Positions 9,879 through 50,573 of a stretch of 64,000 bases of DNA are shown here, piece after piece. Source of the DNA: a virus (lineage: Duplodnaviria; Heunggongvirae; Uroviricota; Caudoviricetes); IMG/VR virus record IMGVR_UViG_3300042863_001217; one strand, given 5' to 3'. Numbering within the stretch: position 1 is the stretch's first letter; each line of letters starts with the position of its first letter. The position numbers and the translations under genes were made by a program. A model generated the notes under the pieces. That model saw only the letters and a list, made by a program, of their open reading frames with translations. It made no database searches and was not told the origin of the DNA.

Positions 9879-10565
9879 TTATTTATCTAACATTGCATTC
9901 TGCAATTCTTTAAGTTTTGCTTCAGCTTCTTTTTGTCCTTTTTCTGTTTTTTTATAGACCTCTTTTTTTTCTTTAACATTATCACAACCAATCTTATAAT
10001 CACTACAAGAATATTGTGCTCCTGTTAAAGAATGTGCTGCTTCACTAAATGCTGCCCCAGCATTTTTGTACTCAGTAATGTAATATGAAAGCCAAGCTTT
10101 AGTTTCTGCAGAAAAATCTTTGCTTATTTTTTGCATTTTATCTTCAAGTTTTTTTGCATTAACTTCATTTTCATCTTCGATAGCTTTGTCTCTTTTAGCA
10201 AGACCGTCCATCATTCTTTCTTCTTCAGCTGGACAATTGTTTTTCATATAAGACCATCTAAAAGATTGTCTACTATTTATGAGCGTGTTATATTTGTTTA
10301 TAAATTTAGCAAGTTGACCATATTCCTCTTTGGCATCAGCTCCACCTTGTAGTTCTGCTAATTCACCTTCCATTTCAACTTTCTGTGCATCCAAGTCTGA
10401 TAATTGAAGCTCAGCTTCATCTTCATCCATGTCTCCTTTTTCTACAGCAGACTGAATTTCTTCCATTCTATCATCAAGTTCAGTTAGATCATTTTGAAGA
10501 TCTTTGATTTTTTTGTCATTACTAGCCTCACCAATAAATTGTTCAAATAGTTTAATATGTTTCAT
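9879..10565 (-). CDS. Leader-family protein (MKHIKLFEQFIGE...), coiled-coil rich
   Basis: Conserved N-terminal decapeptide. Acidic coiled-coil body. Confidence 0.6.
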   Translation of the reverse strand: MKHIKLFEQFIGEASNDKKIKDLQNDLTELDDRMEEIQSAVEKGDMDEDEAELQLSDLDAQKVEMEGELAELQGGADAKEEYGQLAKFINKYNTLINSRQSFRWSYMKNNCPAEEERMMDGLAKRDKAIEDENEVNAKKLEDKMQKISKDFSAETKAWLSYYITEYKNAGAAFSEAAHSLTGAQYSCSDYKIGCDNVKEKKEVYKKTEKGQKEAEAKLKELQNAMLDK

Positions 10566-10600
10566 GTTTGTATTTTGTTTTTATTTTTGTTTTTATTTAA

Positions 10601-11344
10601 TTAGTCCCAAACTTCAGTGTATGTACCACCTACTAACATTACTCCTTGTTGCCAATCAAAATCTAAACGATCCTTTTTGAACATGTAATGTAATTTAATA
10701 ATAGATTCAGTTTCTTCTTCTGATAAACCTAATGCAATATTAAGATCTTTTATTTTGTATGCTTTATCGTAAGATTTTGTGATGTGTACTGATGCTTGAC
10801 TTCCGTAACCTTGATCTCTTGATCCAATTTGTTTATACTCTGCTTTATCTGCTTTCCAAAATGCAAGTATACGTTGGATCATATCGCTGGTTAGAGCTTC
10901 TTTTTGTGTAGATTTAATCCAATTTTTAATATCTTTAGCGAAATTAACTTTCTTTGGATTTGATACATCAATTGCTGTGTAATAATTTATGTAATCTTGT
11001 CCAGATACACCTATACTAGCTCTACCTGGTTTTGGTTGTGCTTTACTAATAACTTCAAAATACGTATAAGAAGCTTTAATATACATTGGACTTATATTAC
11101 AGTCTTGTAATATCTTTGCTCGTTTTTTGTCAATCCATGACCAATCAGGAGCCTCATATGAATTAGTTATTTGCACATATCCATTACTGTAGTCATATGT
11201 TTTAGAATCTTTACCACCTCTTTGGTAACCTACATCTGAAAGGTTTGATAATAAAGCTTTTTCGAAATCTTGTACTAATGCAACTTCTTCAGGATTTACT
11301 TCACCTTCATTAATGAATTGTTCAAATAATTTAATCTTCTTCAT
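10601..11344 (-). CDS. Leader-family protein (MKKIKLFEQFINEG...)
   Basis: Conserved N-terminus. 247 aa. Confidence 0.6.
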   Translation of the reverse strand: MKKIKLFEQFINEGEVNPEEVALVQDFEKALLSNLSDVGYQRGGKDSKTYDYSNGYVQITNSYEAPDWSWIDKKRAKILQDCNISPMYIKASYTYFEVISKAQPKPGRASIGVSGQDYINYYTAIDVSNPKKVNFAKDIKNWIKSTQKEALTSDMIQRILAFWKADKAEYKQIGSRDQGYGSQASVHITKSYDKAYKIKDLNIALGLSEEETESIIKLHYMFKKDRLDFDWQQGVMLVGGTYTEVWD

Positions 11345-11354
11345 ATCTGTTTTA

Positions 11355-11903
11355 TTATTTTGCGTCTATTGATAAGAATAGGCTTTGTCTAATCTCTATG
11401 TTGTTTTGACCAACACTCGACATATATTCTCCTGCTATGATAGTTTCAATTCCAGATACTAATGCGTCGTTTTGCATTCCACTTAGTTTTCTTACATATT
11501 TACCAGCATCTACATCATCTGCAAATCCAACGTTAATTACAAAATCACTAGGAATTCTAACGAATAACTCTGTACCATCTGGTCTATTAAGACCATTAAT
11601 TTGATCATCTACCCATTCTTGTTTGCTTAATGCAGCCATAATATAAACAATAGCTTCTTTATCTTTGACTTGTTTCATAACTTCGTCAGCAATAATCTCA
11701 GCTCCTTCTTTATCAGCCCATTTTGACCAAACTTGATTAATTTCTTTAAGAGTATCTTGAACGTCTCCTTCAAATTTTATTTTTTCAACCTCTTTTTTAA
11801 ATGCAAATAACACTTTTCCAGCGATACCTTTAGCACCATACATACCTGTCATTTGATATGCTTTTTCATTTACGAATTGTTCGAATAATTTAATGTGTTT
11901 CAT
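11355..11903 (-). CDS. Leader-family protein (MKHIKLFEQFVNEK...)
   Basis: Conserved N-terminus. 182 aa. Confidence 0.6.
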   Translation of the reverse strand: MKHIKLFEQFVNEKAYQMTGMYGAKGIAGKVLFAFKKEVEKIKFEGDVQDTLKEINQVWSKWADKEGAEIIADEVMKQVKDKEAIVYIMAALSKQEWVDDQINGLNRPDGTELFVRIPSDFVINVGFADDVDAGKYVRKLSGMQNDALVSGIETIIAGEYMSSVGQNNIEIRQSLFLSIDAK

Positions 11904-11906
11904 GTT

Positions 11907-12224
11907 CTATTTAGATATTTTATTCTTGCTTTCAAATTCAGTTACTTTAGCATATGCCGAAGACTTCATATCGCCTTTTGCTTTTTTAACAAGTTCTGCG
12001 AACTCTTTAGCTGTTTTCATGTCTGGAAATGGAAGTGAAGTTGTATAATCTGGTCCACTATATACATCAAATGGTGCATATTGATCATATTCTTGTTCTG
12101 TATAAACTCCAAATTGATCACTTTCTATATCAATGATGTTTTCTTTTTTAATAGGAAGGAATACTATCCATTCTTGAGATTTTCCTTCTTTTACGAATTC
12201 TTCATATAATTTTGCGTACTTCAT
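11907..12224 (-). CDS. Leader-family protein (MKYAKLYEEFVKEG...)
   Basis: Conserved N-terminus. 105 aa. Confidence 0.55.
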   Translation of the reverse strand: MKYAKLYEEFVKEGKSQEWIVFLPIKKENIIDIESDQFGVYTEQEYDQYAPFDVYSGPDYTTSLPFPDMKTAKEFAELVKKAKGDMKSSAYAKVTEFESKNKISK

Positions 12225-12817
12225 TATGTCATTTTTGGGTATTTTTTCTTAATTTCTTTATAGAATTTCTTGTAGTTTGTACCAGACATGTGATCTTCAG
12301 CTGCTCTAAGCAAATCTTCTAAAGAAGTCCACATTGTATTTGCTAATTGGTCTTGTGTTGTTGAAACTTGAGCCATTCTGTCTAGAATAGAATCAATTAT
12401 TTCAGGATTTAAAACAGTTTCAGTGCTAGGTTTTTCTGGACCCGCTGCTCTTTTAAGTGTCCACCAATCAACTTTCTTAGGAATAGTGTATGAAACAATT
12501 CCTTTTTGTTGGTCATTTGGACTAATTTGTCCAGGTTTTCCAATATTACTAGTGATTTTATCTAAATCTAAATTATCATCAAAACCTTTTAATGCTTTCT
12601 GAATATCTTTAGTTAGATCCACATCTGCCATATTTGGCTCGGTTCTAAGATATATCATTGAAGTCGATGACATGTTAAATTCAACGCCTTTTACTTTAGA
12701 AAGCTCTTTCTTAAATTGTTTTTGATACTCATCAACATCTAACCCATTATTATATCCTGGGAAAATATCCATCTTAGCTTCATTAATAAATTCTTCGTAT
12801 AGTTTTATGTACTTCAT
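12224..12817 (-). CDS. Leader-family protein (MKYIKLYEEFINEA...)
   Basis: Conserved N-terminus. 197 aa. Start overlaps the neighbouring stop (ATGA). Confidence 0.6.
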   Translation of the reverse strand: MKYIKLYEEFINEAKMDIFPGYNNGLDVDEYQKQFKKELSKVKGVEFNMSSTSMIYLRTEPNMADVDLTKDIQKALKGFDDNLDLDKITSNIGKPGQISPNDQQKGIVSYTIPKKVDWWTLKRAAGPEKPSTETVLNPEIIDSILDRMAQVSTTQDQLANTMWTSLEDLLRAAEDHMSGTNYKKFYKEIKKKYPKMT

Positions 12818-13101
12818 TATTTCTTTTTTATGTTTTTACCATTTGGTGTTAATTCTCCGTTATCATCCATCACCGTAAAATGTTCTCTCGAATTTCCTTG
12901 TGTTAATTCTATAGATAAACCTTTGTTCATACCACCTGATTCAGTTGAAGACCACAATCTAACTACAGTCCAAATACCTTTTTCACCTTCAACTTTAACC
13001 TTATCCCATGTCTTAACTTCAGTTTGATCAGTAAATGATTTTATTAATTTATCTTCATTAGACTCGTTAATAAAATCTTCGTATAGTTTTGCATATTTCA
13101 T
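12817..13101 (-). CDS. Leader-family protein (MKYAKLYEDFINES...)
   Basis: Conserved N-terminus. 94 aa. Confidence 0.55.
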   Translation of the reverse strand: MKYAKLYEDFINESNEDKLIKSFTDQTEVKTWDKVKVEGEKGIWTVVRLWSSTESGGMNKGLSIELTQGNSREHFTVMDDNGELTPNGKNIKKK

Positions 13102-21016: not shown

Positions 21017-21029
21017 TATTTATTTTATT

Positions 21030-24914: not shown

Positions 24915-24934
24915 TTTATTTTATATTATTTTTA

Positions 24935-26239: not shown

Positions 26240-26264
26240 TTGTTTATATTTTTATTTTAATTTT

Positions 26265-30153: not shown

Positions 30154-32589
30154 TTATCTTGGCCAAAGCATTACTGTTCCTGGATCTGCAAATTGACCAT
30201 ACCATCCACACTTATCTAAAAATTTAGCAAGATCTTTGTGAATACCTTGTGGAAATTTAGATCCTCCATGGTAATAGTTAAACATTTCATCTTTCGCATT
30301 TGGCATTAATAAACCGTCGTTACCACCTAACCAAATACCACCTTCTTCACCGTCAAACTCTTCCGAATTTTTTACGAAACTAAGACCATATTTAGTAACC
30401 ATTACGTTTTTCATTTCTACTCTTGATAAAATCTTAGCTTCATTCAAGTACTTAGATTCCTGTAAAGAATGCTCGTTAACAATAGACTCATCAACCTTAA
30501 TTCCTCTTTTCTTAAGAAGTTTTTCAATTTCTTGATATGCTTTCTTATAATCTGCTTTTGGATATTCAAATCCTTTTAACCAATTAGCATATCCACTTAA
30601 TGCGTCATCATACATTTTCTTTAGATCTTCATCAGATGTTGAATTACTAAAGAAAAATGGTCCTACAAATGCCTCGTCAATAGAACCTGACATTAATTTA
30701 TATTTCCATGATTTTAGTTTCTTTTCTAATTCAGCTTTATCTTCTGCTTCAAAATCAAACTCATCATTGTAACCATAGTATCCTTTACCACGTTTTTCAA
30801 TGTAAGTTAATCCATCTTCACCGTCGTAGATTGCAATTTCTCTATCGTTATTATAAGTACCTTCTAAGATCTTTACACGTACGATGTCTTTTTTGGCAAT
30901 ACTATCTCCGTTAAAAACTAAATCATTATACATTTTACCAACAGAACCTTTAATTCCTTTTTTGGACTTTGTATCGATTGATAATACTTTATTAGTTCTG
31001 CTAAAATAATCTAACATATCGTAATCAAGATCTTTAGCATCTACTGTTTCGCCAGGACCTGGAAAGTTTTCATCTAAAGATTCAGTTTGAAAATGATTTC
31101 TATTAATCTTATTCAAATAATTTAATTCTTCGTCATTTAATTTAGTTGCAACTAATGATCTAAATTTACCACGTTGTTGAGAAGGCGTAAGCTTCATAAA
31201 TTCAACAATATCTTTGTCATCTTTAATTTTATCAATGATTGATTTTACAGCTTTATCAGATTTTCTTTTTTGCCACCAATTTTTTAAATCTTCAATTGGA
31301 GTAGTACCACCACCTGCACTTATTTTATTACCTAATAATGCTAATTGTCCCATAACCATGGCAGATTGCATTAGTATTAAAAATGTGGTTGCAGCATCTT
31401 CATTAATTGTAGATTCTAACATTTCTTCTTGCTCTGGAAAGTTTAAACTTTTACCAGCTGCAACTTGAATACCCGTAGCACCTCTTAATGAAACTCTTAA
31501 ATTGAATTTATCTCCATTTTCATTTTCAGCTTCAAAATCTCTAGTTGCTCCAGTTTTTGAACCAAATCCAGTTATTGTGTAAGTTCCTTTTTGAGTTTTA
31601 ATTTTGTTTCCAATTTTAAAACCATTTGCCATTTTAGGACTAATCATTCCTTCAACTAATTTCACCAATTTCGAATCGATCCATTCTTCACTAGAACCAT
31701 CCCATCTAATTAGAGATTTATTAGCTCTAGTTTTTACTAACTCACCAGTTCCTTGTAATTCACCTTTAGTATCATAAACATGTACTAACTCAACTGCTTC
31801 ATCGATTGATTCATCACCGAATCTATAACCACTAAACATGTTTTTAGCTTTTACAAGATCATCTTGTGTACCCGTTCCTTGATATAATATTTTACAACTA
31901 TCAGAATAGTTTTTTGCGTCACTTAGAACTTCTCTTACATCTGCTGCTCCAATTGCAATATAACCCGCACTGGTTGAATTTCCAGGATTTGTATATAAAA
32001 CAAATTTTTGTTTTTTAGCTTCATTAAGGGTTGATTCTAACAATATTAATCCAGCTGCCTTTGCTTCATCTCGTAATTCATCAAATTCTTCTATATCACT
32101 TCCTTTGATATAATCTGTTAAACCTCTAAAATTTTTAAAGTTTAACTTCTGTATTATATTAGTATTGCTATTATAAATAGCTCTTAAAAAATCTTTAACA
32201 CCAGCAGAACTTAAATGTAATTCATTTAAAGTTTCTTCAAGGCTAATTGATTCCAATACTTTAGAATTATCTTCAATAGCTTCTAATGTATCTGGCATTG
32301 TTCTAATTCCCACTCCGAATTTTTCATCCCATCTTTCAGATTTATATCCTGTACAATATTTGTCTTTAAGATCTTTATGATTTGCAAAAACACCACCTGG
32401 TAAATTAGTGATAATAGTACCCTTTGGTAAAACTACATTAATATAATTACCAATCTTAGCATCTTTGACATCCTTCTTTAATTCGTATTTACGATTATCT
32501 AAAGTGGTGATAGTTCTACCGCTTGTTCCAGAAATCATTTGCTTTGAAACTTCGCTTATGAATTCTTCAAATAATTTAACTTTCTTCAT
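30154..32589 (-). CDS. Leader-family large protein, 811 aa (MKKVKLFEEFISE...)
   Basis: Conserved N-terminus. Internal ...DESIVNEHS...YLNEAK... motifs. Confidence 0.6.
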   Translation of the reverse strand: MKKVKLFEEFISEVSKQMISGTSGRTITTLDNRKYELKKDVKDAKIGNYINVVLPKGTIITNLPGGVFANHKDLKDKYCTGYKSERWDEKFGVGIRTMPDTLEAIEDNSKVLESISLEETLNELHLSSAGVKDFLRAIYNSNTNIIQKLNFKNFRGLTDYIKGSDIEEFDELRDEAKAAGLILLESTLNEAKKQKFVLYTNPGNSTSAGYIAIGAADVREVLSDAKNYSDSCKILYQGTGTQDDLVKAKNMFSGYRFGDESIDEAVELVHVYDTKGELQGTGELVKTRANKSLIRWDGSSEEWIDSKLVKLVEGMISPKMANGFKIGNKIKTQKGTYTITGFGSKTGATRDFEAENENGDKFNLRVSLRGATGIQVAAGKSLNFPEQEEMLESTINEDAATTFLILMQSAMVMGQLALLGNKISAGGGTTPIEDLKNWWQKRKSDKAVKSIIDKIKDDKDIVEFMKLTPSQQRGKFRSLVATKLNDEELNYLNKINRNHFQTESLDENFPGPGETVDAKDLDYDMLDYFSRTNKVLSIDTKSKKGIKGSVGKMYNDLVFNGDSIAKKDIVRVKILEGTYNNDREIAIYDGEDGLTYIEKRGKGYYGYNDEFDFEAEDKAELEKKLKSWKYKLMSGSIDEAFVGPFFFSNSTSDEDLKKMYDDALSGYANWLKGFEYPKADYKKAYQEIEKLLKKRGIKVDESIVNEHSLQESKYLNEAKILSRVEMKNVMVTKYGLSFVKNSEEFDGEEGGIWLGGNDGLLMPNAKDEMFNYYHGGSKFPQGIHKDLAKFLDKCGWYGQFADPGTVMLWPR

Positions 32590-33649: not shown

Positions 33650-34615
33650 TTAGTTAATATACATATTCAATTCAAATTTATCGTTTCCTCTATTATAAAT
33701 TTGAACATGTAAAGATTTCTTTTGTTCCTTATCGTTTTTAAAAAGTGTTAAGGTATCTTTTTTGGTTTTACCATCATTTGGTTTAAAGAATGCATCTATA
33801 TAAGCATCACCGTATTCTTTAGGATCTAATGTATATCCTTGAGAATTAGCATATATTTCAACTGCATTAATAGCTGAGGAATAGAGATTGTGATAAACTG
33901 GATAGTCATCTTTCTTCTCATTAACTACGCTTTCTTTTAAACCTAATTCTTTGTGTAATACTGACATGAATGGTCCAAAATTATGTGTACCGTATTCATC
34001 GATCAATACCTTAGCAACTGCTAATGCAAAATCAGTGTATGACAAAGAGTCATCAATTTTAATAATTGCTGAATCAATTCCTTTTGCTAATGCATCAGAA
34101 TTTTTAGATTCACTAATATAAACGAATTTATCGCCTTTGAATGCTTTATTTAAATCTTTAAGTAAATCTTCTGGTCCAGTGTGTTCTGCTGTTGAAAACC
34201 ATTTACCTCTGTATTGAAAATCTCCATCATAATCAACTTTAACCATACCATCATCTGAGAATATAAATGCATTTTCATCATCTTCCCAATCAACTGTGAT
34301 TTTCTTTTCTTTAATACCATCAACACCATCCATTGCATCATGAACTGCGTTTAGATTGTCCACCGCTCCAGTGATTTGAGAAAACATCCAAGATTCTAAT
34401 TTTTGACCGCCTTTCATGCGATCTCCGATCATTTCAGCATAATCTTCAATTCTTTCTAATTGACCTAAAGTCATATTATTTAATTCAGTAAGAGTATCAC
34501 CTTCTTCAGTAATTGATTTTTCTGACATATAAAATGCAGCATACTGTTCTCTTGACATATTCTGCTGAGAAGCAGCAATATTTAGATAATCGTCGAATAA
34601 TTTAACTATTTTCAT
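33650..34615 (-). CDS. Degenerate leader-family protein (MKIVKLFDDYLN...)
   Basis: Internal KESVVNEKK motif. Confidence 0.5.
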   Translation of the reverse strand: MKIVKLFDDYLNIAASQQNMSREQYAAFYMSEKSITEEGDTLTELNNMTLGQLERIEDYAEMIGDRMKGGQKLESWMFSQITGAVDNLNAVHDAMDGVDGIKEKKITVDWEDDENAFIFSDDGMVKVDYDGDFQYRGKWFSTAEHTGPEDLLKDLNKAFKGDKFVYISESKNSDALAKGIDSAIIKIDDSLSYTDFALAVAKVLIDEYGTHNFGPFMSVLHKELGLKESVVNEKKDDYPVYHNLYSSAINAVEIYANSQGYTLDPKEYGDAYIDAFFKPNDGKTKKDTLTLFKNDKEQKKSLHVQIYNRGNDKFELNMYIN

Positions 34616-34629: not shown

Positions 34630-34968
34630 TTAATATTCAAATGGTGGTGTACCATAATCAGCACGTTTAACAGCATACCAAACTCGACCTACTCTGAAAT
34701 ACCAGAATGTTGGTGTGTCAATGATATAGTGTTGTCCTTTAATAGTTACGTCTTTGTAACCACCTCTTGTAAAGTTCTTTGTTACAGGAACTCCGTCGTC
34801 CCATGTTTTATCAGTAGATTGTGCTTTGAAAGTTTTACCACTAAAGGTTGCTAAATAAATTTCTGCAGGTTTACCTTCTGATTTTTCGTCTTTAGTAAAA
34901 GCTTCTAAACCGATTGGCATTTCATTACCTTCGTTTACGAATTCTTCAAATAATTTAGTGTGTTTCAT
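34630..34968 (-). CDS. Leader-family protein (MKHTKLFEEFVNEG...)
   Basis: Conserved N-terminus. 112 aa. Confidence 0.55.
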   Translation of the reverse strand: MKHTKLFEEFVNEGNEMPIGLEAFTKDEKSEGKPAEIYLATFSGKTFKAQSTDKTWDDGVPVTKNFTRGGYKDVTIKGQHYIIDTPTFWYFRVGRVWYAVKRADYGTPPFEY

Positions 34969-35169
34969 TTGTAATCTTGTTTTTCACGAGGTTGTCTCTT
35001 TCTTAAATTAATTTCGTCTCTTAATTCTTTGATCCTATCTTTGATAATCATAATTCTATAATTATGCCATTTTCTAACTATAAAACATTTAGATTTATTT
35101 GCTTCTAAGTTTTCTAGTTCGGATTCAAAAAATTTAACCAATTTAAAGAGTGCCACCGTGTGTATTGTT

Positions 35170-35508
35170 TTATTGTTTTTCGTTAGCTCTGCACCAAACT
35201 ACTGCATCTTTTGGAGTTTTTAACTCTTCATCATATCCACTTAAGTCATAAATACCTAAGATAGTTTGACCATCGTCATTTAAATAGAATGAAAATTCTT
35301 CCATGTCACCTTCGTGTCTTGGAGCTTCAGATTCTAATCCATTTGCAAAGTGTACAATATGTGGAAATTCTTCTTGATCGTCATGTCCCCAAATAAGTTT
35401 TTCTACATTTTTGGCTTTAGCAAGTTCTTTAAATAATTTTACTAAAATCTCTGGTTTAGGTGATTTAGCTTCATTTAAGAATTCTTCGAATAATTTAGTG
35501 TGTTTCAT
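35170..35508 (-). CDS. Leader-family protein (MKHTKLFEEFLNEA...)
   Basis: Conserved N-terminus. Confidence 0.55.
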   Translation of the reverse strand: MKHTKLFEEFLNEAKSPKPEILVKLFKELAKAKNVEKLIWGHDDQEEFPHIVHFANGLESEAPRHEGDMEEFSFYLNDDGQTILGIYDLSGYDEELKTPKDAVVWCRANEKQ

Positions 35509-35514
35509 AATATC

Positions 35515-35844
35515 TTATTTATATTCTTTTTCGTATTTAGCTTTTAATTCTTCCCAAGCTGCTTTGTATTTAGCAGGAATTTTAGAAGGTTCATAAATTC
35601 TTGAATTTGATCTTTTGCTTGATCCTACTTTATAGTTTGAACCAGTGTATTGTTCCATGAATTCATCTCCAACTTTTTTATCACCATCAGCTTTAACATA
35701 AATACCATATGTGATAAATGTATCACCGTCTAAGTGACCTTCTAAAATATCACAACAAGGATTATGATCCTTGTTAGAATTAAATTTAAAGTCAATGAAT
35801 TTACCTTCGTTGATAAATTGTTCAAATAGTTTAATGTGTTTCAT
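35515..35844 (-). CDS. Leader-family protein (MKHIKLFEQFINEG...)
   Basis: Conserved N-terminus. Confidence 0.55.
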   Translation of the reverse strand: MKHIKLFEQFINEGKFIDFKFNSNKDHNPCCDILEGHLDGDTFITYGIYVKADGDKKVGDEFMEQYTGSNYKVGSSKRSNSRIYEPSKIPAKYKAAWEELKAKYEKEYK

Positions 35845-35849
35845 AATTA

Positions 35850-36119
35850 TTAAATTAATTTTGCTTTTGCTAATTTTGCTTTTAAAAGTTTACCAACTCT
35901 AGATTCAATTCCAGGAGATCTAAAAGAACCACCTATTTCGTTAGCTTCTTTTTTAATTAAAGTGATTAAGTCATCGATAGCAACTTCAACGTTAGCCATT
36001 AAATCTTCTTCTCTTGCTTCTTCGTCATCTGAAATAGTACCATCAGATTTCTTTTCAGTAATCGTCTTAGGTAATTCAATTTTATTTGCGAAAGCTTCGA
36101 AAGGTTTTGCGTATTTCAT
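35850..36119 (-). CDS. Degenerate leader-family protein (MKYAKPFEAFANK...)
   Basis: Weak match. Confidence 0.4.
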   Translation of the reverse strand: MKYAKPFEAFANKIELPKTITEKKSDGTISDDEEAREEDLMANVEVAIDDLITLIKKEANEIGGSFRSPGIESRVGKLLKAKLAKAKLI

Positions 36120-36939: not shown

Positions 36940-39900
36940 TTAGAATACGAACTGGAATGTCTTTAATAAGTCTTTTCCTTTTGTTGAATTTGCTTCAACA
37001 TTGAACTCATTGTATAGTTTTGTATACATTAAGTCCCATTCGTCTTTATCAGCTAAAGTGTTTAATTCATTTGCATTGTCTTTGATAAATTTCTTAACAT
37101 CAGATCTTAAATCTTCGTTAACCTTTACCTCAAACATTTCTACTAAAGCATCTAACGTTAATTTAGATTCTTCTACGAATTCCTTAGCATTTTTTTTATC
37201 GTCTGGTCCAGCGTCTTCTACTTTATAAGTTTCGCCTTCAAATTCAAATTCTTTTGCACCATCTGCAATAGCTTTTGCTCTTGCTGCACCGAATGCATTT
37301 CCTTCTTCAATAACTGGAAAGGTTTTACCATTAAATTCAAATTCTTCAGCATCTTCTTCGATTGCTTTAGCTCTTGCAGCCAAGAATGCATTTCCTTCTT
37401 CTACGAATTCTTTTGCATTTTCTTTATCGTCTGCTCCAACATCTTCAACTTTATAAGTTTCACCTTCAAATTCAAATTCTTTAGCACCATCTGCAATTGC
37501 TTTAGCTCTTGCGGCACCGAATGCATTTCCTTCAGATACTACTAATTCAAGATCTTTATCTTTACCAGCAACAGCTGCGTCTAATTCTGCTTCTAATTCT
37601 CTTTTCTTAGCTGTCAATGCTTTCATTTCATCCAACAATTCAGATTTTCTATCGCCTTCAGCTACTTTCCACTCACCTGCTTTTTGTTGCATTTTAGTAG
37701 TAGTTTCACTCCATTCTTTTTGGATTTTATTGATTGATCTACCTTCATTAACAACAGATTCATCAATAGCATTTGGATATTTAGTATCTTTAGCTAAATC
37801 TAAAAGAGCTTTAATATCTTCTGCCTTATTTCTATTGTATTTGTCAGCATTCTTTTTATCTTTGAATATCGCAGATACTTGTTTACCATTATCATCAATC
37901 ATAATGATAATACCTTTTTTACCATAAACTCTCTCGTCTGTAACAGATATACCTTCAATAACTACTGATTCTTTAGTCAATTCATTAGGTGCGTGCTTGT
38001 GCATTTCTCCGTTTGGTAATTCTACATTATAGTATTTTTCATCCTCTGCGCCATCTTCTTTATCTAAAGAAACAATTACACCAGTTCCACCATGTGACAT
38101 TTTTACTTTGTCGCCAACTTTAAAATGTGATTCAGTAACTTTAGATTCATATTTATCAGCTTGATTATTTTTAATATCATCTGCTGACATTTGATCAACT
38201 AATCTTTTAAATAAAGTTATTGTAGCTGGACCATAAAAACCATCTTCTTCATATCCTCTAGTAGGTCTGCCCATTTCATAGTCTCCAATGTGTGAAGCAA
38301 GTTCCATTGCATTATCTAATAGATTTTGACCATTACCACCACCTTTGAAAGTTTTTTCAGATGCGGTTTCAACATATTTTATTAGATCAGCCGCAGATTC
38401 ATTAACTTTAGATTCTGACATATTTGCATCTAATACTTTTTGGAATGATTTAGCATCAGTAACTTCTTCGCCAAATAATTCAATTGTTTCGTCATTTAGA
38501 TTAATATAAATTTCAGAACCTTGATGTTTCATGTCTAAAATTATAGTCATATAATCTTTACCAATTGCAGTACCACCGCTAATATACTTACCAGCTTTTT
38601 CAGCCCATGTAGCAGCTTTCTTAACCAATGAAGTTGCATAACTTCCTTTTCTTTTAGCAAAATCTAAAACATTAGAAGGTACTCTTGCTGCTTCAGTAAC
38701 TTTAGATTCATCATACTCTTCATAATCATCATCGTACTCTTCTTCTTGGTACCATGATTGATTTGGATCATGTTCTGCTTCTTGTGTAAAATCGTGCTTT
38801 TTGAAGTTGAAACGTTTTGGATCTTCAACTAAAGCTGGGAAAAGAACTTTTCCACTAACTTTCTTTTTATCAAATGCAATATCAATACCATCTTGTCTAT
38901 TAGGATTTTCAATTCCATTCATTTGAGCTAATAATTCGTAGTAATCTTTACCACCGAATTCACCGTAACCGTCATATTTCTTTTCTTCCCATTTATTACC
39001 TTTGTCATCAAACATTGTAATAGTAATGGTATTTTGTTTTTCAGAACCAATTTGATTTCCAGTATCTTGAGCCATCCATGAGAATTGACCTTCGTTAACT
39101 ACTGACTCGTCCATGTTTTCTTTAGCAGTATCGTAAATTGTTTGTAACCATGCTTCAAATTGACCTGGTTCACCAGCACTAGATAAGTCATGATGTTCTT
39201 TTTTAAACTCTTTTACAAATGATTTAAAATCTTTTGCTTCTTGAGCCATAATATCAATATCTGACATTGCACTCTCGTGTAATTTTGGATTTTTTATGTT
39301 TTTTACAATAGTATCAAGCTTATCATCAAAATAACCATATACCGGTGATCCTGGAACTGCATGATTAACTACTTCTCCGTTATGATAAATATTGTAAGAT
39401 CCACCTGCATATTCTTCGCCATCTACATCTAAATCAAATGAATCTTCTTCTAGTGATTTTTTATTAACAGTAGCTTTAACACCATCTGCTTTAGAAAGAG
39501 CGCTAGCATATAATTCTGCAACCTTTTTTGTATCGTCTAATGTAAGACCTGCTGGTTTTTTAGAAGATTCTAAAAGTTCAGGATAGTATTCTTCAATAGT
39601 TTCTTGATCCATTTCATAGAAATCACTTTTAAGATATGCAAGAATGTCTTTTTTCTTACCAGTTACTTCGAAAGTTCCTTCTTGACGAATGTCCTGACTA
39701 CCGCGACCCAGACTCATTGGTTCAACTTTGATCTTATATTTCTTGAAAGCTGCTTTAGCTGCTTTGTCTTCTTCTTTGTCTAAATCATCCCATGCCATAT
39801 CAACCTCAACAGTGATGACTTCACTTTCACCTACAAAAGATTCAAATTTAAAATCTTGATTCTTTTGTGATTCAGCACTTACTACAGCTAATAAACCAAC

Positions 39901-40518
39901 TTTAGATTTAGGTACCTTTAATTCGATGATTGCTTTTTGTTTAGCATCCCAAAGATCTTTACCTTCTACTTCGATTTTCTTGTTATTAAAGAATGCAAAG
40001 AATAAAGTTTCGTTAACCTTATTTGCTTCTAAAGACTCTTTAATACTTAAGTCTTTTAAACTTCTAACAGGTACACCTTTTGTTTCACCATCTTCTGGAT
40101 TTGAAAATGCTAATAAACCTGCAGCAATTAATCTCTTATAAAGCTCGGTTTTAACTAATTCAAAATCAATAGAGTCTGATGAATTTTCCCAAGTATCTGC
40201 TACATATTCTGGATCAATCCAACCAATACCTCTCTTGATACTGGTTTCCATATCCTTGTAATCCGTTTCGAATTGCTTGATCTTTCCTTCATTGATCTCT
40301 GCATTTGCAAGAGATAATGATTTCATGGCTGATAATTTATCAGTAAAAAATACTAAAGCCTCATTTAAAGACAAAGGTTCTTTGATATTTTTTGTAAGCG
40401 TTTCAGCTTTTATAGAGCTTTTAGTCTCTGACTTTAATAAAGCTATTTTAACCGCTTCAGCAGTATAGCTTGCTCCAGTCGTAACTTCTTTATTATTGAA
40501 ATTAATAAATGATGACAT
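36940..40518 (-). CDS. Giant 1192-aa acidic protein with recurrent E-S-x-V-(N/T)-E motifs and C-terminal 3x tandem ~40-aa repeats. Candidate processed internal virion/ejection protein
   Basis: Five internal sites: DESVVNEG (twice), DESKVTEAA, YESKVTESH, SESKVNESA. C-terminal repeats EGNAFGAARAKAIADGAKEFEFEGETYKVED. Confidence 0.55.
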   Translation of the reverse strand: MSSFINFNNKEVTTGASYTAEAVKIALLKSETKSSIKAETLTKNIKEPLSLNEALVFFTDKLSAMKSLSLANAEINEGKIKQFETDYKDMETSIKRGIGWIDPEYVADTWENSSDSIDFELVKTELYKRLIAAGLLAFSNPEDGETKGVPVRSLKDLSIKESLEANKVNETLFFAFFNNKKIEVEGKDLWDAKQKAIIELKVPKSKVGLLAVVSAESQKNQDFKFESFVGESEVITVEVDMAWDDLDKEEDKAAKAAFKKYKIKVEPMSLGRGSQDIRQEGTFEVTGKKKDILAYLKSDFYEMDQETIEEYYPELLESSKKPAGLTLDDTKKVAELYASALSKADGVKATVNKKSLEEDSFDLDVDGEEYAGGSYNIYHNGEVVNHAVPGSPVYGYFDDKLDTIVKNIKNPKLHESAMSDIDIMAQEAKDFKSFVKEFKKEHHDLSSAGEPGQFEAWLQTIYDTAKENMDESVVNEGQFSWMAQDTGNQIGSEKQNTITITMFDDKGNKWEEKKYDGYGEFGGKDYYELLAQMNGIENPNRQDGIDIAFDKKKVSGKVLFPALVEDPKRFNFKKHDFTQEAEHDPNQSWYQEEEYDDDYEEYDESKVTEAARVPSNVLDFAKRKGSYATSLVKKAATWAEKAGKYISGGTAIGKDYMTIILDMKHQGSEIYINLNDETIELFGEEVTDAKSFQKVLDANMSESKVNESAADLIKYVETASEKTFKGGGNGQNLLDNAMELASHIGDYEMGRPTRGYEEDGFYGPATITLFKRLVDQMSADDIKNNQADKYESKVTESHFKVGDKVKMSHGGTGVIVSLDKEDGAEDEKYYNVELPNGEMHKHAPNELTKESVVIEGISVTDERVYGKKGIIIMIDDNGKQVSAIFKDKKNADKYNRNKAEDIKALLDLAKDTKYPNAIDESVVNEGRSINKIQKEWSETTTKMQQKAGEWKVAEGDRKSELLDEMKALTAKKRELEAELDAAVAGKDKDLELVVSEGNAFGAARAKAIADGAKEFEFEGETYKVEDVGADDKENAKEFVEEGNAFLAARAKAIEEDAEEFEFNGKTFPVIEEGNAFGAARAKAIADGAKEFEFEGETYKVEDAGPDDKKNAKEFVEESKLTLDALVEMFEVKVNEDLRSDVKKFIKDNANELNTLADKDEWDLMYTKLYNEFNVEANSTKGKDLLKTFQFVF
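37170..37560 (-). repeat. Three tandem ~120-bp coding repeats in the giant protein
   Basis: Repeated peptide EGNAF(G/L)AARAKAI...EFEF(E/N)G(E/K)T(Y/F). Confidence 0.6.
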
Positions 40519-41045
40519 ATGTTTGTTTGTATATTTTACTTTATATATTCTTATTTTTTACCAGCACCGGAACCTTTACCGCTTCCGCTTCCAGAACCTG
40601 AACCACTTCCACTTCCAGAACCTGAACCTTTACCACTTGAACGGCCAGAACCTGTACCATAAGCATATCCTGTTCCACCTACATTTGATCCACTTCCAGA
40701 GCCTGATCCTGATCCAGAGCCTGAACCACTGGTAGCATTTTTACCTGTTTTTGGTTTTTTAGGTGTAAGTTTTTTAGCTTTTGCTTCTTTAGCAATTGGT
40801 GCTACTTCTTTTGCTGGTTTAGCAGCTTTAATTTTAGTAGGTTTTTTTACTGTAGGTTCTACAATAGGATCAAGTACTGAACCTCTTTTAGAATCTTCTT
40901 TCTCTTTTTTTGCAATTGCTTTAAAAATAGTTATAATAACTACTAAAGAGACTAATGCTACTGCGATGATTGTTGTACTCATAATTTTGTTTTTTATTAT
41001 TTTAGATTATATATTTATATTATTTATCTTCATTTTGTTTCATAA

Positions 41046-41357: not shown

Positions 41358-42104
41358 TTAAATGTTTTTTAGATTTTCTACCATCCAATCCAATTCTACT
41401 TGACTAGCTGCATCTGAGATGGCATTATCAGGATCTGGATGTGTTTCAATAAATACTCCATCATACTCAAAAATACGTGCAGCTAAAGAATATTGCTTTG
41501 CAAGTTTTCTACTTCCACCTGTAATACCATCACCTGACATTTGAGTTGAGTGCGTACAATCAAAGATAACTTTATCTGCAAATTGTTTCATTACATCAAC
41601 TCCTCTGAAATCTACAATTAACCTATCAAAACCAAATTGAGTACCACGTTCAGTAATCCATACTTGACATGTTGGATTTACTTCTTTAATCTTGGTAACA
41701 GCATGTTTCATTGCATCAGCAGATAACCACTGACCCTTCTTAACGTTGATAATATTAAAGTGTTTTGCACATTCTATAAGAAGATCTGTTTGTCTACATA
41801 AGAATGCTGGAATTTGAATCACATCTACTACATCTGATAATGGTAATGCTTGATCTGCTGTGTGAATATCTGTAACGATTTTAAGACCTGGAAATTTAGC
41901 TTTGACATTTCGCATAATCTCGATACCTTCGTCTAAACCCGGACCTCGATTAGAATGAATTGAAGTTCGATTGGCTTTATCAAAGCTACCTTTAAGATAC
42001 CAATCTTTTCCTTGCATTATAGGATATAGTGCATTTGCTACTTCTGTGAAGTTGTCCTCGCTTTCAATGCTACAAGGACCTAAAATATATGTGTAATTTT
42101 CCAT
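41358..42104 (-). CDS. kdsA: 3-deoxy-8-phosphooctulonate (KDO-8-phosphate) synthase
   Basis: Motifs GPCSIES, KGSFDKANRTSIHSNRGPGL, DVVDVIQIPAFLCRQTDLL and IFDCTHS align closely with bacterial KdsA/DAHP-synthase family proteins. Confidence 0.85.
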   Translation of the reverse strand: MENYTYILGPCSIESEDNFTEVANALYPIMQGKDWYLKGSFDKANRTSIHSNRGPGLDEGIEIMRNVKAKFPGLKIVTDIHTADQALPLSDVVDVIQIPAFLCRQTDLLIECAKHFNIINVKKGQWLSADAMKHAVTKIKEVNPTCQVWITERGTQFGFDRLIVDFRGVDVMKQFADKVIFDCTHSTQMSGDGITGGSRKLAKQYSLAARIFEYDGVFIETHPDPDNAISDAASQVELDWMVENLKNI

Positions 42105-43850: not shown

Positions 43851-44450
43851 TTATTTGTATGCTCTAATTGTTGATATTTGTATTCCTTCATGTTCTTGTT
43901 CTAATGATTTTACTAATACTAAATTAGCCTCATCATCATCGTAAAATTGTAGGTCACTGTAACCCATATCGATCAATTCTCTAAACGCTTGTTTTTTACG
44001 ATCCGATATACTACCTTTGAATTTATGTACTGAATCATTCACTGCAAAAATAAGATCTTTGTCGATTCTAAATCCAACATGTTCTCTTAACCATCTATAA
44101 ATCATTTCTCTATCATCTCTTGCTGTAACAATTCCAACTGCGATGCGTGATTTATAAGCTTCTTTAAATATGTCTAAGTAATGTTCAATCATTTGACCAG
44201 CTTTCATAATCTCTAATGATTTAAATTCATCAAAGTTTAATTCATGATCTGCATGTTTTTCATAACTATTAAATTCTTCTGGAGTCAGTGAATAACATTC
44301 TCCTGTTTTCTTATTGCAAACCTTTATTTTTGCTGATGAAATTACTAAAGTATCGTCAAGATCAAACACAAGAATCTTGGAACCATGATATGGTTTTCCA
44401 GCTCTGTTTACCTCATTTAGGTATTCTGTGTAATTTTTAACGTGTTTCAT
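43851..44450 (-). CDS. HAD-superfamily phosphatase-like protein with degenerate leader (MKHVKNYTEYLNE...)
   Basis: HAD motif I, ILVFDLDDTLV. Confidence 0.5.
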   Translation of the reverse strand: MKHVKNYTEYLNEVNRAGKPYHGSKILVFDLDDTLVISSAKIKVCNKKTGECYSLTPEEFNSYEKHADHELNFDEFKSLEIMKAGQMIEHYLDIFKEAYKSRIAVGIVTARDDREMIYRWLREHVGFRIDKDLIFAVNDSVHKFKGSISDRKKQAFRELIDMGYSDLQFYDDDEANLVLVKSLEQEHEGIQISTIRAYK

Positions 44451-44480: not shown

Positions 44481-44744
44481 TTATTTATTAGATTCTATTT
44501 TTATTTTCAATGCAGTAAGTTTTATATCAATTTTTGATATTTCTGCTTGCATGGAAAGTTTCTGTGCAGTTAATGCTAACATTTCAGATTTTAATGGATC
44601 CTCTTCGTTTCTCATTGCTTTTGCAGTTTCAGCAGCTTTAGTTTTAATCTCGTTTCTTTTAGAATCTAATTCTCTAACTTTAAGATTTAGGTCAGCTACT
44701 TTTTGAGCATCCTCAAATAATTGGAAAGTTTTCAGGTGTTTCAT
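44481..44744 (-). CDS. Small leader-family protein (MKHLKTFQLFED...)
   Basis: 87 aa, coiled-coil. Confidence 0.4.
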   Translation of the reverse strand: MKHLKTFQLFEDAQKVADLNLKVRELDSKRNEIKTKAAETAKAMRNEEDPLKSEMLALTAQKLSMQAEISKIDIKLTALKIKIESNK

Positions 44745-45036
44745 CTTTTGGTATTTCTTTTTCTATTTCTAGAGTCCATAGTCTATTATTAGGTACTACG
44801 AATTTTCTTTCATGTCCAAAAACATAAAAAGTTGTTTTGTATATATTTTGTCTAACTATTCTAGCTTTCTTTGCGCCTTTAATATAAACTATATCATCTA
44901 CATTAAAATCATTGCCCCATAAAAACTGCATACCAATAACAAGATTAGCAATCATGTCTTTGAATGTAAATGAAATTATAGCTACTGCTGTCACCCAACC
45001 CCATTCTGATATGTATTGTCCTATTAACTCTTTCAT
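44713..45036 (-). CDS. Small membrane protein
   Basis: Hydrophobic N-terminus. Confidence 0.35.
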   Translation of the reverse strand: MKELIGQYISEWGWVTAVAIISFTFKDMIANLVIGMQFLWGNDFNVDDIVYIKGAKKARIVRQNIYKTTFYVFGHERKFVVPNNRLWTLEIEKEIPKDETPENFPII

Positions 45037-45521
45037 ATTAGTCCCATTGCACTTAAATTTTGTAGAACCACTTGTTGACTTAACATTATAACTTGTGAAG
45101 CTTCTATTTTGTCCATAAATTTGGCATTATCAATTTCTTCACGCTGTAATTGCCCTTTAGGTACCACTAGATCTTTAAGTCCTATTTTAGACAGGTCATC
45201 TATTTCAACTATAAAATAATAAATAACTTTATTATACTTATACTTTCTAGAAGTTAAAACAAATGTACGTTCAATTTTACTTATTAAAGATTTAGGAACT
45301 TTAATACCGAACTCTTCATAAGTTTCTCTGATAGCAGCATCTAAATGTGATTCACCTTCTTCGATGCCACCTTTAGATATACCATAACCAGTTCCTTCTT
45401 TTCTACCTCTAGATTGACCTAACAAAATTTTACCATCAAACACAATCGCAAGACCAGCTGAATATCTAGTGTCTAGATATTTCTCGTTGATAAATTGATC
45501 ATATTTTTTTAGGTGTTTCAT
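45033..45521 (-). CDS. Leader-family Nudix hydrolase (MKHLKKYDQFINEK...)
   Basis: Nudix box GGIEEGESHLDAAIRETYEEFGI. Confidence 0.65.
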   Translation of the reverse strand: MKHLKKYDQFINEKYLDTRYSAGLAIVFDGKILLGQSRGRKEGTGYGISKGGIEEGESHLDAAIRETYEEFGIKVPKSLISKIERTFVLTSRKYKYNKVIYYFIVEIDDLSKIGLKDLVVPKGQLQREEIDNAKFMDKIEASQVIMLSQQVVLQNLSAMGLI

Positions 45522-50570: not shown

Positions 50571-50573
50571 GTA

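Follow-up and report, generated by a model that had tools for sequence, protein, structure and literature searches.

A modular protein of an uncultured T4-like phage as a probable precursor for the head protease

Introduction

How does a tailed phage use a single 1192-residue protein in which one short peptide recurs between the modules? The protein is encoded in the window analyzed here, a stretch of 64,000 nucleotides of DNA (64 kb) from an uncultured, T4-like phage of about 260 kb. Based on sequence comparisons, we consider it probable (about 0.7) that this protein is a modular prohead precursor that the phage's T4-type head protease cuts at the linkers. Since the linker matches the site of T4-type head proteases, the protein is probably chopped into many proteins inside the capsid. 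Capsid targeting and gp21 processing are known from T4, and the extension to a modular polyprotein would be new.

Results

The 1192-residue protein

The features of the open reading frame (ORF) are given below as positions in the window, with a downward arrow marking each candidate cut.

36940..40518 (-): candidate polyprotein, 1192 aa, acidic and modular (ORF list)
40288..40518 (-): conserved N-terminal region, aa 1-77, MSSFINFNNKE... (alignment of homologues)
40360-40374 (-): candidate site LSLNE↓A inside the aa 1-77 region
40288-40302 (-): candidate site AEINE↓G inside the aa 1-77 region
40009..40026 (-): degenerate candidate site ANKVNE↓T, aa 165-170 (BLAST endpoints, model)
39826..39843 (-): degenerate linker ESFVGE↓S, aa 226-231 (ESFVNE↓S in close homologues)
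39091..39108 (-): linker 1, DESVVNE↓G, aa 470-476 (ESVVNE, aa 471-476; motif match)
38692..38709 (-): linker 2, DESKVTE↓A, aa 603-609 (ESKVTE, aa 604-609; motif match)
38398..38415 (-): linker 3, SESKVNE↓S, aa 701-707 (ESKVNE, aa 702-707; motif match)
38131..38148 (-): linker 4, YESKVTE↓S, aa 790-796 (ESKVTE, aa 791-796; motif match)
37954..37971 (-): degenerate linker ESVVIE↓G, aa 850-855 (ESKVNE↓A in homologue P0016)
37744..37761 (-): linker 5, DESVVNE↓G, aa 919-925 (ESVVNE, aa 920-925), preceding the conserved C-terminal part GRS...
37168..37533 (-): three GNAF repeats, 46 + 29 + 46 aa (direct repeats, translations)
37114..37128 (-): conserved site VKVNE↓D, aa 1131-1135, preceding the C-terminal domain
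36943..37113 (-): conserved C-terminal helical domain, 57 aa, DLRSDVKKFIK...TFQFVF (alignment, model)

Translation placed the five internal motifs exactly where an earlier note on this DNA had claimed them, and the acidic nature described there was borne out by a computed pI of 4.74 and a net charge of about -77. The same note counted three near-perfect C-terminal repeats of about 40 aa; the number three stands, but a diverged copy of 29 aa (87 nt, 76–82% identical) sits between two copies of 46 aa (138 nt, 91% identical to each other). Each unit is modeled as a helix and a hairpin, with V-x-E↓G or I-x-E↓G ahead of it (VVSE↓G, FVEE↓G, VIEE↓G).

The ORF lacks a short tag of the kind found on neighboring genes, and the aa 1-77 region stands in its place. 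Within this region, at least 90% of 52 aligned homologues share L51, N52, E53, A54 and L55, and the domain after INE↓G is homologous to the one behind the tag MKKLLNFSEFVNE↓SINE↓G in locus L165. BLAST segment endpoints cluster at aa 160-169, around ANKVNE↓T, where the structure model has a pLDDT below 50 (aa 161-169), while aa 918-923, at linker 5, form the most frequent segment start. Among the 52 homologues E925 of linker 5 is invariant, with E920 and S921 kept in at least 90%; E1135 of VKVNE↓D is likewise invariant, and (V/I/T)-(N/T)-E↓DLR was found in every MSSFINFNN-type homologue inspected. The 57-aa C-terminal domain is the most conserved and most confidently modeled part of the protein (pLDDT 84–91). 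Every motif site falls in coil or in a low-confidence stretch with better-modeled blocks on either side; because the model is poor overall (mean pLDDT 52.9), the argument that the linkers are exposed is a weak one. No match was obtained in Pfam, NCBIfam or PDB sequences, and no peptidase domain was detected. The single PHROG match was weak (phrog_19202, function unknown).

Motif statistics

In the shuffle comparison that had been named beforehand, the pattern ES.V[NT]E occurred 5 times in the ORF against a mean expectation of 0.01, and none of 5000 composition-matched shuffles reached 5. The pattern was set after seeing the data, and two independent checks, a six-frame scan and a core-site count, hold. 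A relaxed motif, E[ST]x(1-2)[VIL][NTD]E, gave just 10 matches in six frames of the 64-kb window, all of them in frame within three genes (1192, 811 and 321 aa). The core site [VIL][NT]E[AGS] was counted 7 times in the 1192-aa ORF (0.6 expected); beyond their tags, 15 other tagged proteins had no copy (0.7 expected), and untagged proteins had 7 against 4.5 expected, which is background. Codons of the tags and motifs vary synonymously, and selection therefore acts on the peptide.

The post hoc definition of the pattern speaks for reading the motif as a chance or compositional artefact of a protein rich in E, S, V and N. The shuffles, the confinement of the relaxed motif to three genes, and the conservation of the motif in all 120 homologues listed refute this reading, which we regard as virtually certain to be wrong.

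Homologues and module exchange

The 1192-aa ORF has 384 metagenomic homologues; a tblastn search of 50,697 phage records found none among cultured phages. All 120 homologues listed carry between 1 and 9 linkers, nearly all at least 2, and they keep the consensus ES-(V/K)-(V/I)-(T/N)-E↓(A/G/S) while the modules between differ in number and order. Among 225 distinct linker sites, P3 was V in 85% and I in 13% (98% V/I), and P1' was A in 45%, G in 36% and S in 9% (90% A/G/S). P2 was T in 62% and N in 36%, which is no evidence of conservation since P2 T/N, like the P1 E, was dictated by the search pattern. The flanks are unconserved, at background level, and the linker is a short conserved island. 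Of the BLAST segment endpoints, 63% lay no more than 8 aa from one of the 15 candidate sites, against 21% expected.

Sixteen module families stand in identical register behind an N-terminal tag in one protein and behind a linker in another. The module after linker 3 directly follows the tag MKHIQLFEQFINE↓ in L077, and that after linker 4 (SHFKVGDKV...) directly follows MKHIKLFEQFINE↓ in L051; the module after linker 1 (GQFSWMAQDTGNQ...) comes after NESLVTE↓ in the polyprotein P0062.

This pattern of exchange bears on the possibility that the protein remains uncleaved, a polyvalent multidomain head or virion protein working as one chain, with the linker as a flexible spacer and recombination joint. 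Such a reading fits the gain and loss of modules exactly at linkers, where the BLAST endpoints cluster, and phages are known to package multidomain proteins whole (PMC5512222). A spacer, however, requires no fixed sequence, whereas P3 V/I and P1' A/G/S are conserved here as the codons vary. The linker also trades places, register unchanged, with an N-terminal tag whose end resembles that of the cleaved targeting sequence of T4, and a V-N-E↓S-type site lies behind the protease domain in 234 of 240 listed proteases of the related clade. We therefore think it unlikely that the chain stays whole.

Tagged genes in the window

The N-terminal tag MK(H/Y)xKLFE(E/Q)F(I/V)NE, which has no hydrophobic signal-peptide character, was found on 17 ORFs of the roughly 80 genes in the window, in agreement with the F-(I/V)-N-E endings reported earlier.

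30154..32589 (-): 811-aa tagged multi-module protein, start MKKVKLFEEFISE↓
32020-32037 (-): linker ESTLNE↓A of the 811-aa protein
31399-31416 (-): linker ESTINE↓D of the 811-aa protein
30472-30489 (-): linker ESIVNE↓H of the 811-aa protein
30439-30459 (-): linker ESKYLNE↓A of the 811-aa protein
33650..34615 (-): 321-aa tagged two-module protein, linker ESVVNE↓K at 33917-33934
34630-34968, 35170-35508, 35515-35844, 35850-36119 (-): four small stand-alone tagged genes
9879-10565, 10601-11344, 11355-11903, 11907-12224, 12224-12817, 12817-13101 (-): cluster of six more tagged genes
28936-29664 (-): tagged P-loop kinase-like gene (Pfam Zeta_toxin/AAA_33)
29756-30133 (-): tagged 125-aa gene
43851-44450 (-): tagged HAD-phosphatase-like gene (weak match, below the Pfam cut-off)
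44481-44744 (-): tagged 87-aa gene
45033-45521 (-): tagged NUDIX gene (Pfam)

Both sites previously noted in the 811-aa protein (DESIVNE↓H and YLNE↓A) are present, together with ESTLNE↓A, ESTINE↓D and the weaker sites ESIDE↓A, ESLDE↓N and GSIDE↓A, and so is KESVVNE↓K in the 321-aa protein. The last module of the 811-aa protein has a tagged homologue whose gene lies between those for portal and protease in L043, L059, L066 and L097, and its ELVHVYDT module stands behind a tag in L049; the C-terminal module of the 321-aa protein stands behind an N-terminal tag in L099 and L130. Directly downstream of the 1192-aa ORF on the coding strand lie the four small tagged genes at 34630..36119. The tagged polyproteins P0062 and P0098 open with a module that matches the product of 35515-35844 over its full length at 65% identity, and the module encoded by 34630-34968 occupies an internal position in P0033, P0027 and P0058.

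No Pfam family was found for the six tagged genes at 9879..13101. Several tagged proteins look like ordinary enzymes (NUDIX, kinase, weakly HAD-like) and are not obvious capsid cargo. Homologues of the kinase-like gene in the T4-like phages Melnitz (MKTFAELQE↓GVYDP) and HTVC008M (MIPFILKE↓GLYDP) have short N-terminal extensions ending in x-E↓G.

Head gene clusters in related contigs

The genes adjoining the 1192-aa ORF are lysis-like and fibre-like rather than head genes, and no protease, portal or capsid gene was found within the 64-kb window. The tag DNA pattern occurs in at least 120 places in IMG/VR. Among the places listed, 8 have a T4 gp21 homologue, 6 of them also a gp20 portal, and in 5 of these gp21-containing loci a tagged gene lies between portal and protease. 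Contigs of 246–259 kb with similar tags contain Portal_T4, Peptidase_S77 and Gp23.

In related contigs, the stretch between the T4-type portal or protease (Pfam Peptidase_S77) and the major capsid gene encodes tagged proteins whose modules reach 91% identity to the 1192-aa ORF. The order in L135 is portal, a 609-aa protease, a tagged 561-aa protein, a tagged 208-aa protein and the capsid gene. The 561-aa protein, adjoining the protease gene, is 91% and 81% identical to two modules of the 1192-aa ORF, the former being the module after linker 2; the stand-alone 208-aa protein adjoining the capsid gene is a homologue (53% identity) of the module after ESFVGE↓S. In the L165 head cluster, a tagged 324-aa protein combines the N-domain of the 1192-aa ORF (43%) with module 2 (72%).

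The protease of the related clade is fused to a scaffold region, and nearly all of the 240 listed protease proteins carry PF03420. Behind the protease domain, 234 of the 240 have V-N-E↓S/A, and 216 have an N-terminus ..LILE↓R, comparable to LLIE↓T of T4 gp21. Nearly all capsid proteins of the clade that were seen start with M..L(I/L)NE↓. The site type thus recurs in obligatory substrates of this protease.

A protease other than that of the head, from phage or host, or a localisation or secretion system could in principle read tag and linker, the tagged proteins then having no association with the capsid. The tagged NUDIX, kinase-like and weakly HAD-like enzymes could work in the cytoplasm, and the window contains no protease gene, both of which would suit such a recogniser. 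The positions of tagged genes between portal and protease in the five loci, and between protease and capsid gene in L135, make it very unlikely, as do a determinant equal to that of the T4 gp21 motif and the T4 targeting sequence and a tag devoid of hydrophobic signal-peptide character.

The cuts could also be those of a sacrificial prohead core or scaffold, comparable to T4 gp22, gp67 and gp68, whose pieces are expelled or serve as filler and are not cargo. High acidity is shared with T4 gp22 and gp67, which hold DESTITE↓S-type sites, and small fragments do arise from T4 core proteins by cleavage (PMC9958956). We nevertheless find this quite improbable: the discrete modules keep their conservation over long distances and are swapped as units, they also stand alone as tagged genes similar to small independent phage proteins, and the clade already has a separate scaffold region in its protease fusion. 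In addition, the site is avoided inside the bodies of tagged proteins, in keeping with products that are to persist.

Discussion

The earlier proposal of a single head protease that both trims the tags and dices large proteins at (V/I)-x-E is supported by inference, because several independent comparative lines agree with it: the likeness of the tags, the linker island, the shared register of tag and linker, the head clusters, and the sites in protease and capsid proteins. We propose that the 1192-aa precursor would be incorporated into the prohead of a T4-like jumbo phage, where a Peptidase_S77 (gp21-like) maturation protease would cut after the Glu of E-S-x-(V/I)-(N/T)-E↓(A/G/S). Five canonical and up to 10 degenerate linkers would yield about 10 small domains of 57–245 aa, with aa 1-77 and the 57 C-terminal residues, both conserved, as candidate anchors in the prohead core. 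The 13-aa tag on 17 neighboring genes may be the counterpart of the T4 capsid-targeting sequence, with the same cleavage determinant. Ending in this same determinant, tag and linker would leave the same mature N-terminus, which would explain both the free movement of modules between stand-alone tagged genes and polyproteins and their gain or loss by in-frame recombination between linkers. Cleavage, capsid location and delivery of the products into the host are steps that we infer, delivery being the least certain.

A broader idea, which we hold tentatively and at somewhat less than even odds, is that in an uncultured T4-like clade the 13-residue tag and the six-residue cut linker form a plug-and-play capsid delivery system, with the polyprotein as an arsenal of injected effectors. 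The clade would comprise phages of ~140 to more than 250 kb, probably infecting Bacteroidota, from environmental metagenomes (ENA, JGI). Any small gene product could enter the capsid, alone or fused into the polyprotein, and the head protease would free each piece; about one-fifth of the genes in the region would then encode capsid-delivered proteins. The polyprotein may evolve fast, and its injected effectors might include anti-defence factors.

If the linkers are cut, a tailed phage would here make a regular polyprotein, which is unusual for a DNA phage, and one gene would give about 10 capsid-internal proteins by means of the existing head-maturing protease. Phages would thereby have a route to enlarge and reshuffle the proteins injected with their DNA, by fusion and fission at a fixed peptide that doubles as a recombination site. 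A very large set of metagenomic 'hypothetical' proteins would become interpretable, and ORFs of the clade with a tag start or linker bounds would be candidate virion cargo. The T4 targeting sequence has already been used for engineering; tag and linker together might allow several cargoes per construct.

Comparison with known systems

The closest likeness is to T4, whose gp21 cuts at L/I-X-E (PMC9026906) and whose N-terminal sequence has a capsid-targeting function (PMC9958956). T4 IPI-III and Alt share with the proteins described here a short N-terminal address ending in hydrophobic-x-Glu plus a small residue; IPII and IPIII begin with MKTYQEFIAE↓A, compared with MKHIKLFEQFINE↓G/A here, and related sites are FLTE↓A in gp23 and DESTITE↓S and NFVTE↓A in gp22 (NC_000866). 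The 1192-aa ORF carries five canonical and about ten degenerate sites of the hydrophobic (L/I/V)-x-Glu type, usually with a small residue next, that is expected of gp21/Peptidase_S77 substrates. A tag in the place of the 10–20-aa targeting propeptide of such substrates is found on the 17 neighboring ORFs and on homologues such as P0062, while the 1192-aa ORF begins MSSFINFNNKE. T4 and the related contigs also have in common a head cluster of portal, core proteins, protease, scaffold and capsid gene, and a gp21 homologue that adjoins tagged genes in these contigs. In T4, however, each internal protein has its own gene and loses just an N-terminal tag; here several modules share one ORF in which the cleavage determinant recurs from module to module, the tag is far commoner, and the clade's protease is joined to the scaffold. 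The 1192-aa ORF has no sequence homology to T4 proteins.

In phiKZ, 201phi2-1 and SPN3US, a distant gp21 homologue processes many proteins of the head interior by cutting after Glu (PMC9026906, PMC10052503, PMC5694885). These jumbo-sized phages (proteases gp175, gp245) resemble the present one in having multiple sites per substrate, but their motif is S/A/G-x-E or A-x-E rather than V/I-(N/T)-E, and their cuts remove long N-terminal propeptides, whereas the candidate cuts here separate a chain of modules. Their inner-body proteins showed no homology to the 1192-aa ORF in tblastn against the 50,697 phage records, and they do not share the tag. The tblastn result and P3 V/I instead of S/A/G speak against a phiKZ-like inner body protein. 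Of the two comparisons drawn in the earlier note, that with T4 gp21 holds, since the motif is of T4 type, and that with phiKZ stands as an analogy. In SPN3US all identified protease cuts, save self-cleavage of the protease, remove N-terminal propeptides (PMC10052503); to dice a protein internally into many stable pieces would thus be unusual.

Polyvalent proteins have been proposed to be packaged and delivered with DNA, and proteolytic release of their domains has been suggested (Iyer et al. 2017, PMC5512222). Like them, the 1192-aa ORF has many unrelated small domains in one chain and an architecture that differs among relatives. That class is defined by known effector domains (ART, ParB, MPTase, nucleases), often with an embedded metallopeptidase; neither was recognised in the 1192-aa ORF, which in these features differs from the class in spite of its multidomain character. 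Unlike polyvalent proteins, it has regular candidate release sites matching the head protease.

T4 gp22, gp67 and gp68, which gp21 dices, are acidic as well, with several internal sites of the form (D)ES-x-I-T-E↓S or V-T-E↓A. Those proteins are short, low-complexity or coiled, and degraded to peptides, whereas the domains that make up the 1192-aa ORF are discrete and conserved and are also found as genes of their own.

Candidate cleavage sites in a putative polyprotein ORF

Internal sites of one kind were found in three genes:
36940..40518, minus strand: polyprotein ORF, 1192 aa, pI 4.74, net charge about -77
30154..32589, minus strand: 811-aa gene, tagged
33650..34615, minus strand: 321-aa gene, tagged

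Translation of the polyprotein ORF revealed the five sites that the earlier note had listed, i.e., DESVVNE|G (twice), DESKVTE|A, SESKVNE|S and YESKVTE|S, where the bar marks the predicted cut point between P1 (Glu) and P1'. We refer to these internal ES-x-V-(N/T)-E sequences as linkers. Their recurrence also held against a composition-matched shuffle, with 5 occurrences of ES.V[NT]E compared with a mean of 0.01 in 5000 shuffles. This pattern was picked after the data had been seen, and therefore a looser one was scanned in all six frames of the window; all 10 occurrences were in the true frame of the three genes, the claimed sites of the 811-aa and 321-aa proteins among them. The core site [VIL][NT]E[AGS] was detected 7 times in the polyprotein ORF (0.6 expected), 0 times in the bodies of 15 other tagged proteins (0.7 expected) and 7 times in untagged proteins (4.5 expected), counts that, at the level of sequence, would fit a cleavage model. 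One further linker of the polyprotein ORF is decayed, reading HES-AMSD at aa 413–419 where the metagenomic homologue P0022 has NESKVNE|GAM.

Seventeen ORFs of the window start with the tag, a peptide of the form MK(H/Y/K)xK(L/T)(F/Y)E(E/Q)F(I/V/L)NE, for example MKHIKLFEQFINE. The codons of tag and motif vary synonymously, which indicates that the peptide is conserved and not a DNA element. A DNA-level cause, such as a conserved nucleotide element, a promoter or an internal start, was rejected on this ground and because the linkers contain no start codon.

The C-terminal repeats described earlier do exist, although not as three near-perfect copies of ~ 40 aa: a direct-repeat search, in contrast to TRF, which missed them, detected two 46-aa copies (91% DNA identity) around a diverged 29-aa copy. 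The full-length structure model was poor (mean pLDDT 52.9), with only the last 57 aa modelled confidently. Every motif site is in a low-confidence stretch that separates better-modelled blocks, and four of the five canonical sites are in coil; this modelled interdomain placement may lend weak support to cleavage. A fold search with the model gave nothing stronger than weak similarity to small phage proteins, all uncharacterised.

Homologues and module shuffling

The polyprotein ORF had no match in Pfam, NCBIfam or PDB sequences, nor in cultured phages by DNA or protein search, and a single weak match of function not known in PHROGs (aa 168–215). In contrast, 384 metagenomic homologues were found. 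The 120 listed carry 1 to 9 linker copies each, nearly all at least two. The 225 distinct linker sites have V (85%) or I (13%) at P3 and A, G or S (90%) at P1'; the T (62%) or N (36%) at P2 was preset by the search pattern. Two residues away from the site, in both directions, information content has already reached background.

The stretches between linkers vary in number and order among homologues. Close relatives (P0002, P0006, P0014, P0016 and P0022), 83–95% identical to the polyprotein ORF, have gained or lost whole modules in frame relative to it, and hybrid linkers mark the joints, e.g., ...KYESVDVNE|GRS (P0006) and ...VSESVVNE|GRS (P0014). BLAST segment endpoints lie within 8 aa of 15 candidate sites in 63% of cases, compared with 21% expected. 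The repeated linker also appears to serve as a recombination site. A ~ 1330-aa protein on a 212 kb IMG/VR contig (L045, 557–4549) has many linker-bounded modules, several of which are found elsewhere as stand-alone tagged genes, making it an even larger example of this architecture.

Modules follow tags and linkers alike. The tagged polyproteins P0062 and P0098 have as their first module a tagged 109-aa protein that the window encodes as a stand-alone gene (35515–35844). They next read ...NESLVTE|GQFSWMAQDTGNQ, the module that follows DESVVNE| in the polyprotein ORF. When 339 post-tag heads were systematically compared with 646 post-linker heads, 16 families showed the same module in the same register after either, among them modules 3 and 4 of the polyprotein ORF and the final module of each of the two tagged proteins (811 and 321 aa). 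Such same-register exchange argues that the boundary after the glutamate is functional; tag and linker would yield the same N-terminus. The linkers could instead be uncut spacers or recombination joints, which would account for the shuffling of modules but leaves unexplained both the conserved P3 and P1' residues and the register-exact exchange with a cleavable tag.

Head gene clusters in related loci

Family and homology searches of the window revealed no protease, portal or capsid gene. The tag DNA pattern occurs in at least 120 places in IMG/VR, on contigs of 5 to 256 kb. Among the places listed, eight also hold a T4 gp21 homologue, six of them with a gp20 portal, and in five the order is portal, tagged protein, protease, capsid protein. 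These proteases have 644–694 aa with the protease domain at the N-terminus, the rest probably being a fused scaffold part. In one locus (L135), the portal and a 609-aa protease are followed by a tagged 561-aa multi-module protein, an 88-aa protein, a tagged 208-aa protein and the capsid protein. Its 561-aa protein is 91% identical to the polyprotein ORF over 100 aa (aa 609–708) and 81% identical to aa 792–853, and its 208-aa protein is 53% identical to aa 225–317. The head cluster of another locus (L165, G+C 0.32) includes a tagged 324-aa protein with the post-INE|G domain of the polyprotein ORF (43% identity) and its module 2 (72%). The tagged protein encoded between portal and protease is homologous to the last module of the 811-aa protein.

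Among 240 listed relatives of two such proteases, nearly all contain PF03420 (Peptidase_S77). In 234 the protease domain is immediately followed by V-N-E|S/A, and 216 have a ...LILE|R start. The adjoining capsid proteins nearly all start M..L(I/L)NE|(A/S/Q), and a published 462-kb huge phage (LR756500) has the same protease and capsid site pattern. Contigs of 246–259 kb with the same arrangement and tagged genes also exist. The site that bounds the modules is therefore the one expected for the protease of this clade, an identity that uncut spacers would leave unexplained.

In this T4-like clade (loci L066, L101, L165, L176, L241 and L300, and proteins P0121–P0360), a gp21-type protease domain lies N-terminally in 560–825-aa proteins, the remainder probably being scaffold; the capsid protein leader has just 6–8 residues (M..LINE|). 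A stretch inside the 321-aa gene (34406–34513) has weak similarity to the scaffold part of the fusions in L165 and L241 (E 0.003–0.006, 36 aa), which may be compositional.

For the lineage of the window itself, no record was found for the gene at the left edge, and the search from the right edge reached only NAD-salvage and small genes. Around the homologues P0006, P0042 and P0080, gene order matches that of the window and head genes are absent. Among the proteins listed by homology searches with the two proteases, none was on the 255–261-kb contigs of this lineage. Its 165-kb contig was not returned when IMG/VR was scanned with patterns for the protease, the capsid protein and the N-terminus. 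Jumbo contigs with head genes were rejected as members, since their G+C (0.38–0.46) points to other lineages. We infer a T4-type protease in this phage from its relatives.

Genome setting and neighbouring genes

The window is AT-rich (G+C ~ 30% from 10 kb onward), with nearly all genes on the minus strand. It encodes peptidoglycan hydrolases, a collagen-like protein, a SprB-repeat protein, glycosyltransferases, a KDO-8-P-synthase-like enzyme and one tRNA, and is therefore part of a large phage genome, probably with a Bacteroidota host. Public assemblies include near-identical contigs of 255,024 bp (ERZ28593223, KAVA23-1 scaffold_13) and 260,917 bp (ENA ERZ27272104, k141_203066), the window corresponding to positions 174,798–238,797 of the longer one; IMGVR_UViG_3300042472_000628 belongs to this lineage as well. 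Other features are:
1–9000: plus-strand genes without tags, G+C 0.36–0.39 (about 0.30 in 10000–64000, the remainder being minus-strand); may be a module boundary or acquired island
7311–8453: RecA/DnaB-like gene; a search for a T4 link gave nothing informative
18296–27944, minus strand: row of large fibre-like genes, encoding proteins of 906 aa (weak intein/Hint-like C-terminus), 1294 aa (collagen triple-helix repeats, Pfam E 9e-118), 434 aa (SprB repeat under the Pfam cut-off, proline-rich repeats) and 559 aa (no family assigned)
13123–18192, 41358–42104 and 46487–50963: sugar-metabolism genes, with several glycosyltransferase-like and epimerase genes, a 1068-aa heptosyltransferase (GT9) and GT1 domain fusion, and a KDO-8-phosphate-synthase-like gene whose relatives are Pfam DAHP_synth_1
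40551–40982, minus strand: 143-aa protein with an N-terminal membrane helix, a lysine/proline-rich stretch and long (Ser-Gly)n runs, whose coding sequence is made of imperfect 18–30-nt tandem repeats
56901–57824: SPFH/Band-7 protein, 43–46% identical to crAss-like and about 41% to Lak phage proteins
58891–58965: tRNA-Ala (TGC)
59189–59362: 57-aa gene, histone-like Hc1 by Pfam in the matching contig

Matches to the T4 late-promoter consensus TATAAATA show no overall enrichment in the window (12 matches, 13.6 expected). Of the nine minus-strand copies, seven (14799, 29676, 35516, 36831, 41012, 54319 and 60356) occupy short gaps, each at a distance of 3 to 91 nt before a gene start, two tagged genes included, a placement that hints at T4-like late transcription. 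The copy at 41012–41019 is 30 nt ahead of the 143-aa gene, and 32 nt separate that gene from the polyprotein gene downstream of it; given this promoter match and spacing, the two genes may form one late transcript.

Proposed role and comparison with known systems

We propose, with a probability of roughly 0.7, that the polyprotein ORF encodes a precursor that would be taken into the prohead and cut at its linkers by a T4-type protease, releasing about ten small proteins. By analogy with T4 IPI, it is plausible that the pieces would be delivered into the host as effectors. The main alternative for the pieces is a sacrificial core role like that of T4 gp22, which itself holds DESTITE|S and NFVTE|A (NC_000866).

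The proposed cleavage resembles that of T4, as the earlier note had suggested: gp21 cuts after L/I-X-E, and IPIII is targeted to the capsid by its first 10 residues, which are then removed (PMC9026906, PMC9958956), a rule that tag and linker here fit. In the T4 genome (NC_000866), the N-terminus reads MKTYQEFIAE|A in IPII and IPIII and ...QLLIE|T in gp21, and the gp23 cut is at ...FLTE|A; the T4 tag EFIAE|A and the tag QFINE|G/A are alike. Unlike the related loci, in which protease and probable scaffold are fused and the capsid leader is 6–8 residues long, T4 keeps the two in separate genes (21 and 22), and its gp23 leader has 65 residues.

No paper containing the tag strings turned up in a literature search. 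T4, phiKZ and SPN3US provide precedents for capsid targeting tags and Glu-specific head proteases (PMC9026906, PMC5694885, PMC10052503), and the polyvalent proteins are a precedent for packaging of multidomain proteins (PMC5512222). What is new is a putative cleavage determinant regularly repeated between the shuffled modules of one ORF, the exchange of these modules with stand-alone tagged genes, and the very high tag frequency in an uncultured clade.
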